64,000 bases of DNA. Source: Escherichia coli. Lineage in GTDB: Bacteria > Pseudomonadota > Gammaproteobacteria > Enterobacterales > Enterobacteriaceae. The position numbers and the translations under genes are program-made. The notes below the pieces were generated by a model. It did not search any database, was not told the origin of the DNA, and was given only the letters and a program-made list of their open reading frames with translations. The stretch lies in assembly GCF_013122565.1 (NCBI RefSeq), contig NZ_CP053258.1. One strand, given 5' to 3'. This document shows, one piece after another, positions 53,864-64,000 of this stretch; position 1 is the stretch's first letter, and the number at the start of each line of letters is the position of its first letter.

Positions 53864-53871
53864 ACAACTGT

Positions 53872-53910
53872 GCCGTTCACTGAATCACCACCGGTGAACG
53901 GCAGTTTTTT
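53872..53910 (+). terminator. intrinsic terminator of tpx
   Basis: Stem GCCGTTCAC (53872..53880) / GTGAACGGC (53894..53902), then AG + T6 (53905..53910), 9 nt after the tpx stop. Confidence 0.85.
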
Positions 53911-54017
53911 GATCTACCAGTCCCACTATTTTCCAGAGTTCCTGCCACTATTCCCCCTAACCGTTGTGCATTAAGATTGCTCTTTGCCAATATTGGCCCA
54001 GCGGAGTGATGACTATT

Positions 54018-56060
54018 ATGGATGATAAACAAATTACGGTCTGGCTTAAACACAATTGCTGTTCAACGGACATTCCTGCCATTGCCGAGGCACTAACGAA
54101 CCATGCAGAATGGCTTTTAGAGCTAGCGCCAGATCCTATTGAACAAGGTAGTTCATGTTTACCGCCGACAGCTGCAGCCGGTATTTTTCTTGGCGCAGCG
54201 GCGATGGTTCACTGCGGCGAGGCTAGTGGTGCAGAAACCTGGCTCGAAGCAGCCATTACTGATTACCATTTCTTTAATCCAAATGGATATAGTTCATGGA
54301 GAGGCAGTACGCCTGTTTTTACAGCATTATCGCGTTACCCGGCATTAAGAATGGTGTTATTTAACGCCGCTTGCGCAATGGAAGACTGGAATAAAGCATC
54401 CGCTGTTCTTGAATCGCTTTTCCATGCCAGCGATGTCCCGGAAGATAACCCTGTCGCCCCAAATTTTACCCCTTATGCGCTGAAAGCGTTTATCGCGGAT
54501 TACCACCCGTTAGGACCAGCTCATTATGATGAAACCTGGTTGCTGGCAAAACAAGCGTGGTTAATTAATGCGAGCGTTCTGGATGAGCGAACCTGCAATA
54601 CCTGGAAGCAATATACCCGCCACTTGCGCCATTTGATCCACAATGCACAGTTTGCCGATGCGCTCTCTTTTGTACGCAGTAAAAAAGAACCGTTAAATCA
54701 TATCCATACCTACTCAGACTTTTATCTGTATGCGATTGGTTTATTTTCTTATACTGGTCAGCTAAATGAAGCGCTGACCTGGATAAAACAGTTAATCCAC
54801 AACAATGATGGTCATTTCTGTGATCTTTTCGTTTCAACTGGCAAAGAGCGCCGAATAAAGCCTGAACTTAGTACCTTGCTGAATAATCTCTTGCACAGCG
54901 CAGAGTTTCAGGCGTTGCAGGATAAATATCTCACCGTCGGACATGATGTTGTGCATTCTGGTCCCTTCATGTCAGTTTATGAAAAGGTTCTTGGCGGAAA
55001 GTCCCGAAAGCGCTGCGCGATTAGTCGAAAATTAATCTCGCCCGGCGAAGCGGTTTATGAATATCGTCAGCTGGATAGTGTGGCATATATTGCAGCGAAA
55101 GCGGCCTTTCAGGCATCTGCGCTAAATAATATCGCCCTCCGGCATACAAATGATAGTTATCAGTGGCAGGATTTTGCCGCCCAATGGCCTCGTCGGGGTG
55201 CGCTTTCTCACCCGGATATTGCCCGTTATATGTTTGAGCGCCAGAAAGGGAAATGTTTTGATGCCGCAGAGTTTATTCAACTGATTGCCGAACCGTTTGT
55301 CTTTCCGATGCGTTTCAGATGGGTTGCCGGGTTGTCCTTTGAATTACATCAGTACCCGGATGCCTATTTCGTAAATGACAATATGGCGGGTGAATTTGTT
55401 AATCTCTGCTGGATGGCTATAAAATGCGGACATGCTGGCGACATTTTTAAACAACTGGCGAAGGAGTCGCATGACGTTGCCGACCCTATTTACGCTATGC
55501 TCGCCACGTTTGACCGCGCTGATTGCCGCAGCGCTGCCGCCGCGCACTTTGGACGACCGGAGCTTGCGGAAATAATGGCGCTGGCTTTCAGTTCGAGGTT
55601 ATCGCTCGACAGCGTCCTTACCATCGCTGAGTTTGGTAAAAATCAGCCGCGCTTTTCACATGCGTTGGCAACGGCCCTCCTGCGTTACAACCTGCACATC
55701 TACTCAAACTATATGCCGCAGGTTAACTGGTTCCTTCAGGGGCTGGAACACTATGCTTTGGCAAAAGGCGGTCAACTTTTAAATTTCTTTGTGCATATTC
55801 CAGAACAAATTCCCGTTCTGGCGACCATGCTGGAACATGGCGTATTAGTGCGTGGGATCGGTGAAGGTGCCTATGATGGTTATGATAATTCAGCAAATTC
55901 ATTTCATCATGCCGCCGTGATGCACTGCCTCACGCACGCGCCGGAAAAAGTTCGCTACTGGATGGAAACACCCTGGATTCAGAACTATTTAGTGAATGCG
56001 CCGCTGCGTCAAACGGCGCGCCATGTGGAAGCCTGGCATAAAAAGTTTGGCATCAAATGA
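54018..56060 (+). CDS. uncharacterized ~680-aa protein with no recognisable motif, encoded on an insertion between tpx and tyrR
   Basis: Uninterrupted ORF (longest form from TTG 53964, 698 codons); ATG at 54018 sits about 7 nt after a GGAGTGAT Shine-Dalgarno-like sequence (alternative ATG at 54009). No Walker A, HTH, signal peptide or nuclease motif seen; rare codons CGA and ATA are used; bounded by the tpx terminator and an inverted repeat at the tyrR 3' end. Confidence 0.7.
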   Translation: MDDKQITVWLKHNCCSTDIPAIAEALTNHAEWLLELAPDPIEQGSSCLPPTAAAGIFLGAAAMVHCGEASGAETWLEAAITDYHFFNPNGYSSWRGSTPVFTALSRYPALRMVLFNAACAMEDWNKASAVLESLFHASDVPEDNPVAPNFTPYALKAFIADYHPLGPAHYDETWLLAKQAWLINASVLDERTCNTWKQYTRHLRHLIHNAQFADALSFVRSKKEPLNHIHTYSDFYLYAIGLFSYTGQLNEALTWIKQLIHNNDGHFCDLFVSTGKERRIKPELSTLLNNLLHSAEFQALQDKYLTVGHDVVHSGPFMSVYEKVLGGKSRKRCAISRKLISPGEAVYEYRQLDSVAYIAAKAAFQASALNNIALRHTNDSYQWQDFAAQWPRRGALSHPDIARYMFERQKGKCFDAAEFIQLIAEPFVFPMRFRWVAGLSFELHQYPDAYFVNDNMAGEFVNLCWMAIKCGHAGDIFKQLAKESHDVADPIYAMLATFDRADCRSAAAAHFGRPELAEIMALAFSSRLSLDSVLTIAEFGKNQPRFSHALATALLRYNLHIYSNYMPQVNWFLQGLEHYALAKGGQLLNFFVHIPEQIPVLATMLEHGVLVRGIGEGAYDGYDNSANSFHHAAVMHCLTHAPEKVRYWMETPWIQNYLVNAPLRQTARHVEAWHKKFGIK

Positions 56061-56068
56061 ACGTTGCC

Positions 56069-56089
56069 GCTGCGCCTGAACGGCGCAGC
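56069..56089. terminator. inverted repeat between the inserted ORF and the tyrR 3' end
   Basis: 8-bp stem GCTGCGCC / GGCGCAGC with loop TGAAC, between the ORF stop (56060) and the tyrR stop (56098); no U-run, so terminator function is uncertain. Confidence 0.4.
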
Positions 56090-56097
56090 CAGCACAA

Positions 56098-60394: not shown

Positions 60395-61393
60395 ATGTCC
60401 CCTACTATTTATGATATCGCCAGGGTTGCGGGCGTATCAAAATCTACCGTATCACGCGTGCTGAATAAGCAAACTAATATCTCCCCGGAAGCGCGCGAAA
60501 AAGTGTTACGGGCCATTGAAGAATTAGAGTATCAACCAAACAAGCTGGCCCGTGCGCTCACCTCTTCCGGTTTTGATGCGATTATGGTTATTTCTACCCG
60601 TTCCACGAAAACCACGGCGGGTAATCCTTTTTTCTCTGAAGTTCTACATGCCATCACCGCCAAAGCTGAAGAAGAAGGTTTCGACGTGATATTGCAAACG
60701 TCGCACAATCCTGCGGAAGACTTACAAAAATGTGAAAGCAAAATTAAGCAGAAAATGATTAAAGGCATTATTATGCTAAGTTCGCCAGCGGATGAGTCAT
60801 TTTTTGCCCAACTCGATAAATACGATATTCCGGTGGTGGTAATTGGCAAAGTTGAAGGTCAATATGCCCATGTTTATTCTGTCGATACCGATAATTTTGG
60901 CGACAGCATTGCGCTAACCGATGCGTTAATTGAAAGTGGGCATCAAAATATTGCCTGCCTTCATGCACCGCTTGATGTCCATGTTTCGGTTGATCGGGTT
61001 AATGGTTATAAGCAGAGTCTGGAAGATCATAATATTGCAGTGCGTGATGAATGGATCGTTGATGGCGGTTATACCCATGAAACAGCACTGCAAGCAGCAC
61101 GGCAATTATTAAGTCAGTCACCGTTGCCAGAAGCCGTATTTGCCACTGACAGTCTGAAATTAATGAGTATTTATCGTGCGGCGGCAGAGAAAAATATTGC
61201 TATTCCGCAGCAGTTAGCGGTGGTGGGTTATAGTAATGAAACGCTGTCGTTTATTTTAACGCCTGCACCAGGCGGCATCGATGTCCCGACGCAGGAGTTA
61301 GGGCAACAAAGCTGTGAGTTATTATTCCGCTTAATTGCCGGAAAACCGTCACCACAAAATATTACCGTTGCCACGCATATGACGCTGAAATAA
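60395..61393 (+). CDS. ycjW: LacI-family transcriptional repressor
   Basis: 332-aa ORF with N-terminal LacI-type HTH ([21 protein letters not shown]) and a periplasmic-binding-protein-like sugar-binding core. Confidence 0.85.
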
Positions 61394-61415
61394 ATACCAG
61401 CTACCTTGCCTGAAT

Positions 61416-61490
61416 GCCGGATGCGATGCTGGCGCATCTTATCCGGCCTACATTTATAGACCGGATAAAGTACTCGCGCCGCATCCGGCA
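61416..61490. repeat. REP/BIME element between convergent ycjW and ompG
   Basis: GCCGGATGCGATGCTGGCGCATCTTATCCGGCC and GACCGGATAAAGTACTCGCGCCGCATCCGGCA palindromic units. Confidence 0.8.
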
Positions 61491-61503
61491 ATTTAACCCA
61501 TTA

Positions 61504-62409
61504 TCAGAACGAGTAATTTACGCCGACACCTGCATAATGGAATTTATCGCTGTCGCCTTCGTCGTGATTCTGCCACTCAAACGCGTATTCCAGCGAAACG
61601 GAAAGTCCGTTCTGGAAATCATAACCGTAAAATAAACCCACACGGTTAAAATCATGGCCTTCACGTTCAATATCATCCTGCCAGTCCCAGTTACTCCAGC
61701 GATCCAGCCCAATGCGTGTATACGGCGTCACCGAGTGGTTGCCGAGCGTCAGCGGCAAATAGGCGCGAATTTCTTGCGTGGAAAACTCACCGTTATTGCG
61801 GCTGTCGTCCATATTGAAGCCGCGCTCGAGATAATAGTTCACTCGCAAAGCAACCGTTTCGTTGAAGGTATATTGCAGACCTGTTTCCGTTTCTACACGG
61901 GTATCAGCGTAACCGGTCGTGTCCAGATCGTTGGCAAATTTATACATCGACAACCAACCGTTGAAACGTAAATCGTCAGTCAGTTTCACATCCCAGTCTG
62001 GCGCGATTTTCCAGCGCTGCATATTCGCCGTGTCTTTACCCGGTTCATCAACGTAGTGATAACCATAATTACGGAAACCGCCGGTCAGGCCGAAACTGAA
62101 ATCATCGCTTTCGAGGAACTGATAATGCACCTCCAGCTCCGGGCGATCAAACCACGTTCCACGTTTACCCGCGCTATAATCTACCGGCCCTTCCTGATAA
62201 TAGGCCAAAGAAATTCTCCACGGCCCGTTGGCAGCATTAAAATAGACAGAAGGCTCCGCCAGCCCATCCATATCTTCGCCATAACCCTCGACGTTTTCTA
62301 TTTCGTACATCGCGCCGATATTAAAGTGCCAGTCATTCTTTTCCTCTGCCTGTGCGCAGGCCATTCCCGCACACATCACCAGTGCGGTACAGGGTAATAA
62401 CTTTTTCAT
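61504..62409 (-). CDS. ompG: outer-membrane porin OmpG
   Basis: 301-aa ORF with signal peptide, beta-barrel-like alternating aromatic pattern and C-terminal F. Confidence 0.9.
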   Translation of the reverse strand: MKKLLPCTALVMCAGMACAQAEEKNDWHFNIGAMYEIENVEGYGEDMDGLAEPSVYFNAANGPWRISLAYYQEGPVDYSAGKRGTWFDRPELEVHYQFLESDDFSFGLTGGFRNYGYHYVDEPGKDTANMQRWKIAPDWDVKLTDDLRFNGWLSMYKFANDLDTTGYADTRVETETGLQYTFNETVALRVNYYLERGFNMDDSRNNGEFSTQEIRAYLPLTLGNHSVTPYTRIGLDRWSNWDWQDDIEREGHDFNRVGLFYGYDFQNGLSVSLEYAFEWQNHDEGDSDKFHYAGVGVNYSF

Positions 62410-62453
62410 TATTGTTCCTTGTATTATCCTGGGGGAATGCCTTCCCCCTGTAT

Positions 62454-63536
62454 TTAGCGAATTGCTATTTCCGTTTCTGCATCAAAGAAATGACATTTAG
62501 TCATATCAAAATGAATAGTGATATTTTCTCCTGCATGATAATCATTCAACGCACCAGCACGGACCACTAACTCGTGCCCCCCAACCGTGGTGTAGAGCAT
62601 AAATTCCGCACCGGTTAATTCTGCCACGCTAATTTTGGCGGAAATCTTATTTTCCTCTTGCGCGTCCGGATGAATATCTTCCGGGCGTATTCCCATCACG
62701 ATGGGCTTATGCAAACTTTCCTGTGTTTTCAGAACCGCTAATTTCTCTTCGGGAATGGTTAATTTAAGCGTTTCCGTAACGAATTTATCGCCATCGATCG
62801 TGCCACGAATAAAATTCATCGCCGGTGATCCAATAAATCCGGCAACAAACATATTCGCTGGTTGGTTATAAACCGTTTTCGGCGCACCAACTTGCTGAAC
62901 AATCCCATCCTTCATAATCACAATCCGCGTCGCCATGGTCATCGCTTCGGTCTGATCGTGGGTCACGTAGATCATGGTGGTATTCAGCTTCTGGTGCAGC
63001 TTGCTGATCTCTGCGCGCATTTGCACGCGCAGCTTGGCATCAAGGTTAGAGAGCGGTTCATCCATTAAAAACACGCCCGCTTCGCGCACAATCGCCCGCC
63101 CGAGCGCCACACGCTGGCGTTGCCCGCCGGAAAGCGCGCCCGGCTTGCGTTTCAGGTACTCTCGCAGGCCGAGAATTTGCGCCGCCCAGTTCACCCGCTC
63201 ATCAATCACCTCTTTGGCGATTTTTTGCATCTTCAGGCCAAACGCCATGTTGTCGTAGACCGTCATATGCGGATACAGCGCATAGTTCTGGAACACCATC
63301 GCGATATTGCGCTCTTTAGCCGGAACGTCATTCATTCGTTTGCCGTCGATCAACAGATCGCCGCCGCTGATCTCCTCAAGCCCGGCAATCATGCGAAGGG
63401 TGGTCGACTTACCGCAGCCTGACGGGCCGACAAACACGATGAACTCTTTATCGGCAATTTCCAGGTTGAAGTCCTTCACCACATGCACCTGGTTATCGTA
63501 GATTTTTTGAATATGTTGTAACGAAAGCTGTGCCAT
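62454..63536 (-). CDS. ycjV: ABC transporter ATP-binding protein (MalK-like), intact
   Basis: 360-aa ORF with Walker A GPSGCGKST, signature LSGGQRQR and Walker B VFLMDEP plus a C-terminal regulatory domain; the K-12 copy is truncated (from memory). Confidence 0.85.
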   Translation of the reverse strand: MAQLSLQHIQKIYDNQVHVVKDFNLEIADKEFIVFVGPSGCGKSTTLRMIAGLEEISGGDLLIDGKRMNDVPAKERNIAMVFQNYALYPHMTVYDNMAFGLKMQKIAKEVIDERVNWAAQILGLREYLKRKPGALSGGQRQRVALGRAIVREAGVFLMDEPLSNLDAKLRVQMRAEISKLHQKLNTTMIYVTHDQTEAMTMATRIVIMKDGIVQQVGAPKTVYNQPANMFVAGFIGSPAMNFIRGTIDGDKFVTETLKLTIPEEKLAVLKTQESLHKPIVMGIRPEDIHPDAQEENKISAKISVAELTGAEFMLYTTVGGHELVVRAGALNDYHAGENITIHFDMTKCHFFDAETEIAIR

Positions 63537-63549
63537 GTTGATTCCTTTG

Positions 63550-64000
63550 CTATACGTTTTGCCAGAAGGCCGATAACCGCGGCCAGGTCAGGGAGTCCGT
63601 TGAGGGCAACAGTAATTGCGCCCCGGTTAAGCCCGCGCCGATCCCCACCGAGCGCATACCGCTGGCGTTAATGGCGTCAATGCCCGCCTGCGCATCTTCA
63701 ATGCCGATACATGCCTGCGGCGGCACGCCCAGCCCGGCACAGGCAGCGAGAAAGATTTCCGGATCCGGTTTCGAGTTTTTAAGTTGGGAAGCATCCGCGC
63801 AGAAGGTGAAAAACTCGCGCAGCTCCAGCGCCGCTAAAATCGTCGGCGCATTCAGGGAGACGGAAGCCAGCCCTACCGGAATCTGCTGTGCACGGAGCTC
63901 TGCCAGCAAATTGCGAATACCGGGCAGCACAGCATTAACCGTCAGCTCGCGCAGTGAGTGGACGTAAAGCAGATTTTTGCGATACGCCAGTTGCGCCCGC
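63550..64000 (-). CDS. ycjU: beta-phosphoglucomutase-like HAD hydrolase, C-terminal part (5' end lies outside the window)
   Basis: Reading frame open from 63550 to the window edge; HAD-family C-terminal motifs ([11 protein letters not shown]); position matches K-12 ycjU. Confidence 0.75.

Follow-up and report, generated by a model that had tools for sequence, protein, structure and literature searches.

Sequence Comparison Places the Full-Length ycjV ATPase Gene of Escherichia coli as the Ancestral State and the K-12 Pseudogene as a Derived Exception

Introduction

The enzymes of the ycj operon of Escherichia coli include the kojibiose phosphorylase YcjT, the beta-phosphoglucomutase YcjU, the glucosylglycerate phosphorylase YcjM, and YcjQRS, which accomplish the conversion of gulosides to glucosides. 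Under laboratory conditions, K-12 keeps ompG and the ycj operon silent, and genes that are all intact may therefore still be cryptic. A sequence-only reading of a 64,000-nucleotide stretch of E. coli DNA (hereafter the window, meaning the whole stretch analysed) had noticed a full-length ycjV ATPase gene, took the K-12 copy to be truncated, and proposed that the ycj sugar-catabolism cluster may be functional in this strain. Here we ask whether the gene is intact, where the K-12 lesion lies, which of the two states is ancestral, and what an intact ATPase would mean for sugar uptake.

Results

The ycjV Gene of the Window

Translation of the window ycjV revealed zero internal stops across its 360 codons, and a Shine-Dalgarno sequence is positioned before the ATG with a spacing of 6 nt (Table 1). 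The gene is located between ycjU (pgmB) and ompG on the same strand, with ycjW convergent, and this place marks it as orthologous to the ycjV of the ycjMNOPQRSTUV-ompG operon. Both the uninterrupted ATPase frame and the two flanking genes, ompG and the ycjU phosphoglucomutase, are therefore as the sequence-only reading had described them. The three neighbours in the window (ompG, ycjW, and the ycjU part) are all open, and their products share 98–99% of residues with those of K-12.

The arrangement is common in the species. A search with 1.7 kb around ycjV found a match in 5,006 of 5,426 complete E. coli genomes. The matched stretch covered genes annotated as ABC transporter ATP-binding protein, pgmB, and ompG in all of the E. 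coli records sampled. Nucleotide identity between the window ycjV and annotated E. coli ycjV was 96.8–98.4%, the window allele thus differing by 1.6–3.2% from those compared, in keeping with its probable origin in a divergent lineage. An exact look-up of the window YcjV protein matched a single public contig (Logan assembly SRR11451224, locus L003). In its architecture, context, and sequence, ycjV shows no departure from the family; it is a known gene in a known, common state, and its presence here is already known biology.

Table 1. Features of the ycjV locus, given in window coordinates or in residues (aa) of YcjV.
Feature	Position	Strand	Basis and remarks
ycjV CDS, 360 aa, intact, ATG to TAA	62454..63536	(-)	ORF list, translation, Pfam, alignments
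Shine-Dalgarno AAGGA	63543..63547	(-)	Direct sequence reading; within the 13-nt gap following the ycjU stop
Walker A GPSGCGKST	aa 37-45		Meets GxxGxGK[ST]
Q-loop VFQNYALYP, Q83	aa 81-89		
ABC signature LSGGQRQR	aa 135-142		
Walker B VFLMDEP	aa 155-161		
D-loop SNLD	aa 163-166		Just past the ABC_tran core, at lower window coordinates
H-loop YVTHDQ, H193	aa 190-195		Just past the ABC_tran core, at lower window coordinates
ABC_tran (PF00005) ATPase core, aa 21-162	63051..63476	(-)	Pfam, 111.2 bits vs cut-off 25
C-terminal MalK-type regulatory domain	62484..62831	(-)	OB_MalK + TOBE_2; tail conserved with MsmX
G6 homopolymer (CCCCCC on + strand), gene nt 955-960	62577..62582	(-)	Alignment, translations, sequence; K-12 has G5
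ycjU/pgmB 3' part, beta-phosphoglucomutase	63550..64000	(-)	Open to window edge; matches K-12 YcjU residues 70-219
ompG, monomeric porin, 301 aa, intact, last operon gene	61504..62409	(-)	296/301 identical to K-12 OmpG
ycjW, LacI-family repressor, 332 aa, intact	60395..61393	(+)	327/332 identical to K-12 YcjW; role from PMC6599011
7-bp GC-rich hairpin GGGGGAA-loop-TTCCCCC, ycjV-ompG spacer	62431..62448		Sequence

Domains and Relatives of YcjV

All the nucleotide-binding motifs named in the earlier reading (Walker A, LSGGQRQR, Walker B, and H-loop) were located in YcjV, and the assignment of an ABC nucleotide-binding domain is supported both by the complete set of motifs and by a score above the Pfam gathering threshold. 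The MalK-like C-terminal regulatory domain that it had proposed was likewise recovered, with OB_MalK (PF17912, aa 236–288) at 54.7 bits against a cut-off of 27 and TOBE_2 (PF08402, aa 282–351) at 39.6 bits against a cut-off of 21. With OB_MalK and TOBE following the nucleotide-binding domain, YcjV belongs to the MalK/UgpC/MsmX-type (CUT1 type) ATPases. It reached the cut-off of NCBIfam PRK11650 (UgpC-type; 486.9 vs 432 bits), and its score under the MalK equivalog NF008233 was 433.1 bits, below the cut-off of 568 bits, which indicates that YcjV is a paralogue of MalK and not MalK proper.

E. coli MalK (1Q12 and others), the ATPase of the maltose importer, combines a nucleotide-binding domain with OB_MalK/TOBE as YcjV does (E = 9e-101), although the two proteins are paralogues and not orthologues. 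The best solved relative was Bacillus subtilis MsmX (6YIR), with residues 1–360 aligned (E = 5e-149), the same domain order, and a conserved C-terminal tail. MsmX is an orphan multitask ATPase that serves several sugar importers, whereas ycjV sits within its own operon, and E. coli YcjV was unable to replace MsmX in B. subtilis (PMC7658222).

Within the species, the 13E0780 protein (WP_000057977.1) is encoded by the same gene in the same position between pgmB and ompG, is also 360 aa long, and differs from the window YcjV by three amino acid changes, A75E, G273E, and N297K (window residue last). The full-length E. coli YcjV WP_000057985.1, the allele that Leisico et al. 2020 worked with (PMC7658222), has 360 aa like that of the window. 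ATP hydrolysis was reported for this protein, which is near-identical to the window YcjV (PMC7658222).

The K-12 Frameshift

Alignment of the window gene with K-12 ycjV, a check put forward with the original claim, placed the lesion in the G6 run listed in Table 1, where a 1-bp deletion has removed one G of six. In the K-12 derivative NEB5-alpha (locus L001), ycjV measures 1,082 nt and carries the PGAP flag of a 'frameshifted' pseudogene. The truncation ascribed to K-12 was thus correct, and the possibility that K-12 ycjV might be equally intact, which would have spoken against the claim, is not borne out. The K-12 pseudogene (b1318) is orthologous to the window gene, with 34 nucleotide differences over 1,083 positions, three of them amino acid changing after frame repair, and its downstream fragment was once called ymjB.

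In the K-12 frame, two wrong residues are followed by a stop after codon 322, and residues 321–360 (40 residues) are lost. These residues lie within TOBE_2, and their conservation extends to MsmX ('FDM.K.HFFD.ETE..IR'). The window copy is not of this K-12 type: it has six G residues, and its frame is open to codon 360. In K-12 engineering, ycjV is routinely treated as a 'pseudogene' and serves as a neutral site for integration (PMC10380740).

Frequency of the Two States and Selection on ycjV

To count both states across the species, we used an 89-nt probe at the G-run (G6) and its 88-nt K-12 version (G5) on 5,426 complete E. coli genomes. The locus was carried by 4,995 of these, leaving ~8% without it; 3,060 of the 4,995 matched the G6 probe exactly and 367 matched the G5 probe exactly. 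Rows sampled at even intervals through the ranking indicated that the remainder are mainly single-base variants keeping the 89-nt length, and in that sample rows spanning 88 nt were about as numerous as the 367 exact G5 matches. By this count, about 92% of the complete E. coli genomes with the locus are full length at the G-run site. The G5 share is only ~7%, and nearly all of the 60 G5 records listed are K-12 laboratory derivatives.

Since most E. coli with the locus carry ycjV intact, its presence does not set this strain apart. The proposal that the cluster may be functional stands in its hedged form, given the full-length ycjV and the intact operon described below for L003, while the distinctiveness implied by it does not, with ~92% of copies intact.

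The loss of one G was found on three haplotypes, namely K-12, 2014C-3051 (21 nt from K-12), and 08-00022 (5 nt). The latter two are wild isolates whose ycjV is annotated as frameshifted, as in K-12. Recurrence of G5 on the wild haplotypes would reflect either slippage at the homopolymer or assembly error; with the slip present on three haplotypes, this run could be a hotspot at which function is lost repeatedly.

Comparison with ten other alleles, all of 360 aa except that of K-12, gave dN/dS values of 0.013–0.059 relative to the window allele. A 32-nt ycjV pattern searched on GTDB representatives matched Escherichia sp. E1V33, E. whittamii, Pseudocitrobacter vendiensis, and a Citrobacter MAG, and all eleven other copies from non-K-12 E. 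coli, other Escherichia, the Citrobacter MAG, and Pseudocitrobacter have 360 codons. The substitution pattern clearly points to purifying selection maintaining ycjV. On these comparisons, the intact gene is the ancestral form, and K-12 is a derived exception that arose by a one-base slip in the G6 run.

Separately, the operon DNA of P. vendiensis (L010), the Citrobacter sp. MAG (L008), and E1V33 (L009) is 93–97% identical to that of the window lineage. In E1V33, ycjV-ompG is 97.2% identical to the window and the adjoining ycjW-ycjX only 92.5%. Such a pattern points to the ycj cluster having been exchanged horizontally or recombined; for the MAG, mis-binning is a further possibility.

The Remainder of the Operon

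Across the entire 2,579-bp overlap, L003 and the window share 100% identity, and the two may come from the same strain. On L003, each of ycjN, O, P, Q, R, S, T, U, V, and ompG matches its K-12 counterpart in length and is free of internal stops, and the operon proteins are 98–99.7% identical to those of K-12. The genes ycjN, ycjO, and ycjP are thus intact there in the same operon, outside the window. For ycjM, the gene was called at its full 559 aa; the last 357 codons were read directly, and the first 202 come from the gene call. An inactivating change elsewhere in ycjMNOPQRSTUV would have counted against a functional cluster, and none was present from ycjN to ompG on L003. An exact YcjT protein look-up for the 5' end of ycjM and the promoter of this lineage returned no record, and the YcjN look-up yielded only relatives at 98.5–99%.

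The hairpin in the ycjV-ompG spacer was considered as an intrinsic terminator and rejected, as it has no T-run in the operon direction; this is consistent with published ompG co-transcription. Downstream, REP-like palindromic repeats (GCCGGATGCGGCG... / ...CGCATCCGGC) occupy the convergent ycjW-ompG gap (window 61394-61503). L003 ends at window 61422, where the repeat probably broke the assembly.

Regulation by YcjW

YcjW represses ycjM-V-ompG, kojibiose releases it from DNA in vitro, and deletion of ycjW in K-12 'massively' derepresses the operon (PMC6599011). ChIP-seq placed YcjW at two sites, one upstream of ycjM and one inside the 3' end of ycjT (PMC6599011). The 14-mer TGGGACCGCTACCA is identical at both of these sites in K-12 (L001 15926-15939 and 25854-25867), and on this ground we take it as the probable YcjW operator. 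In L003 (9298-9311) the 14-mer lies 17 bp upstream of ycjU, and it is present in every other locus fetched; within the window, no copy was found at up to two mismatches. Its position before ycjU implies a putative second regulated entry point ahead of ycjU-ycjV-ompG. On the sequence evidence, the cluster appears complete, sequence-competent, and still regulated in the window lineage, as in most E. coli.

Discussion

Proposed Function of the Intact ATPase

We consider it very probable that the window ycjV is a wild-type, functional allele encoding the dimer ATPase of the YcjNOP type I ABC sugar importer, with K-12 as the derived exception. Expression of the window YcjV, its assembly with YcjOP, its substrate, and its phenotype are inferred, and the likely pathway outlined here is put together from papers that each treat single proteins of the operon. 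In such a pathway, an alpha-glucoside-type substrate would cross the outer membrane via OmpG and would be bound by the lipoprotein binding protein YcjN. A YcjV dimer docked on the permeases YcjO and YcjP would then drive uptake by ATP hydrolysis, and the imported sugar would be degraded by YcjT, YcjU, YcjM, and YcjQRS, with YcjW holding the whole operon off until an inducer arrives. The fold of YcjN, a lipidated substrate-binding protein, resembles that of maltose-binding protein, and the purified protein displayed no thermal shift with any sugar screened, kojibiose and maltose included (PMC11543891).

Alternative Explanations

An unlikely but serious alternative is that ycjV is intact and the cluster is nonetheless cryptic in this strain, either because YcjW represses it permanently or because the niche offers no substrate, in which case the intact gene would make no phenotypic difference. 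Such a view draws on the strong repression in K-12, where deleting ycjW left growth on kojibiose no better (PMC6599011), on the failure of YcjN to bind any tested sugar (PMC11543891), and on the absence of the locus from ~8% of complete E. coli genomes (4,995 of 5,426 carry it). It is harder to reconcile with dN/dS values of 0.01–0.06 across Escherichia, Citrobacter, and Pseudocitrobacter, which show that selection keeps the protein, or with the 360-aa gene found in all eleven other non-K-12 loci fetched. The conserved candidate operator, together with its repressor, also points to regulated use and not to decay. Strong purifying selection speaks against decay but is no proof of use in this strain.

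We find it doubtful that the integrity of ycjV is irrelevant, such that the 322-aa product of K-12, or a MalK/UgpC paralogue, energises YcjNOP and gives both types of strain equal transport capacity. The K-12 frameshift occurs at codon 320, past all the catalytic motifs, and leaves the ATPase core complete; moreover, one MsmX/MsmK-type ATPase is common to several importers in Firmicutes (PMC7658222). Yet the 40 lost residues belong to the TOBE_2 fold, are conserved to MsmX, and are under purifying selection, and a truncation inside a beta-sandwich domain would usually be destabilising. Nor does kojibiose support growth of K-12 when it is the only source of carbon (PMC6599011).

That the G6 run acts as a slip-strand on/off switch, with the window displaying the 'on' phase of a phase-variable ycjV, is very improbable: the change from G6 to G5 on three haplotypes (K-12, 2014C-3051, and 08-00022), all annotated as frameshifted, would fit such a switch, but six bases make a short run for a contingency locus, G5 occurs in only ~7% of genomes and seldom outside K-12 (the records listed being mostly one laboratory lineage), and long-read homopolymer assembly errors could explain the few wild cases.

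Consequences for K-12 Growth

The reading of the window ycjV as a functional wild-type allele adds little for the window itself, where an intact copy matters little, since RefSeq annotation and the literature already treat an intact ycjV as the species norm and class that of K-12 as pseudogenic. Forward value lies solely in a possible link to K-12 growth. When kojibiose was the only source of carbon, K-12 did not grow, and deletion of ycjW was of no help (PMC6599011). The G6 to G5 slip in ycjV, and not a lack of enzyme or induction, could explain why K-12 does not use kojibiose or related glucosides, an idea that we regard as speculative and rather unlikely to hold; if it were true, strains with an intact ycjV, that of the window included, could use kojibiose or related glucosides. 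The papers on the ycj operon that we read make no such link between the failure of K-12 to grow on kojibiose and the ycjV frameshift. Since ycj physiology comes almost entirely from K-12, in which the ATPase is truncated, the negative growth result on kojibiose may not generalise.

Divergence of the Window and an Insertion between tpx and tyrR

Compared with the best of the 5,426 complete E. coli genomes, the window is 96.3–97.7% identical over 25-kb pieces, and its first 25 kb reach 86–88% coverage in the best complete genomes. Such low best-genome identity suggests that the lineage is poorly represented among complete genomes, and the window, which none of the GTDB representatives recovered with the ycjV pattern matched, probably belongs to a divergent lineage of E. 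coli sensu lato, for which cryptic clade I is no more than a guess. A 2.2-kb insertion is located between tpx and tyrR (window 53864-56097), where K-12 has 44 bp. It holds one 698-aa ORF (53964..56060, + strand), for which searches of Pfam, NCBIfam, and PADLOC gave no match. The insertion occurs in only 32 of the 5,426 complete E. coli genomes, in which the ORF is annotated as 'hypothetical protein', and its GC content of 0.43–0.51 is lower than that of its flanks.
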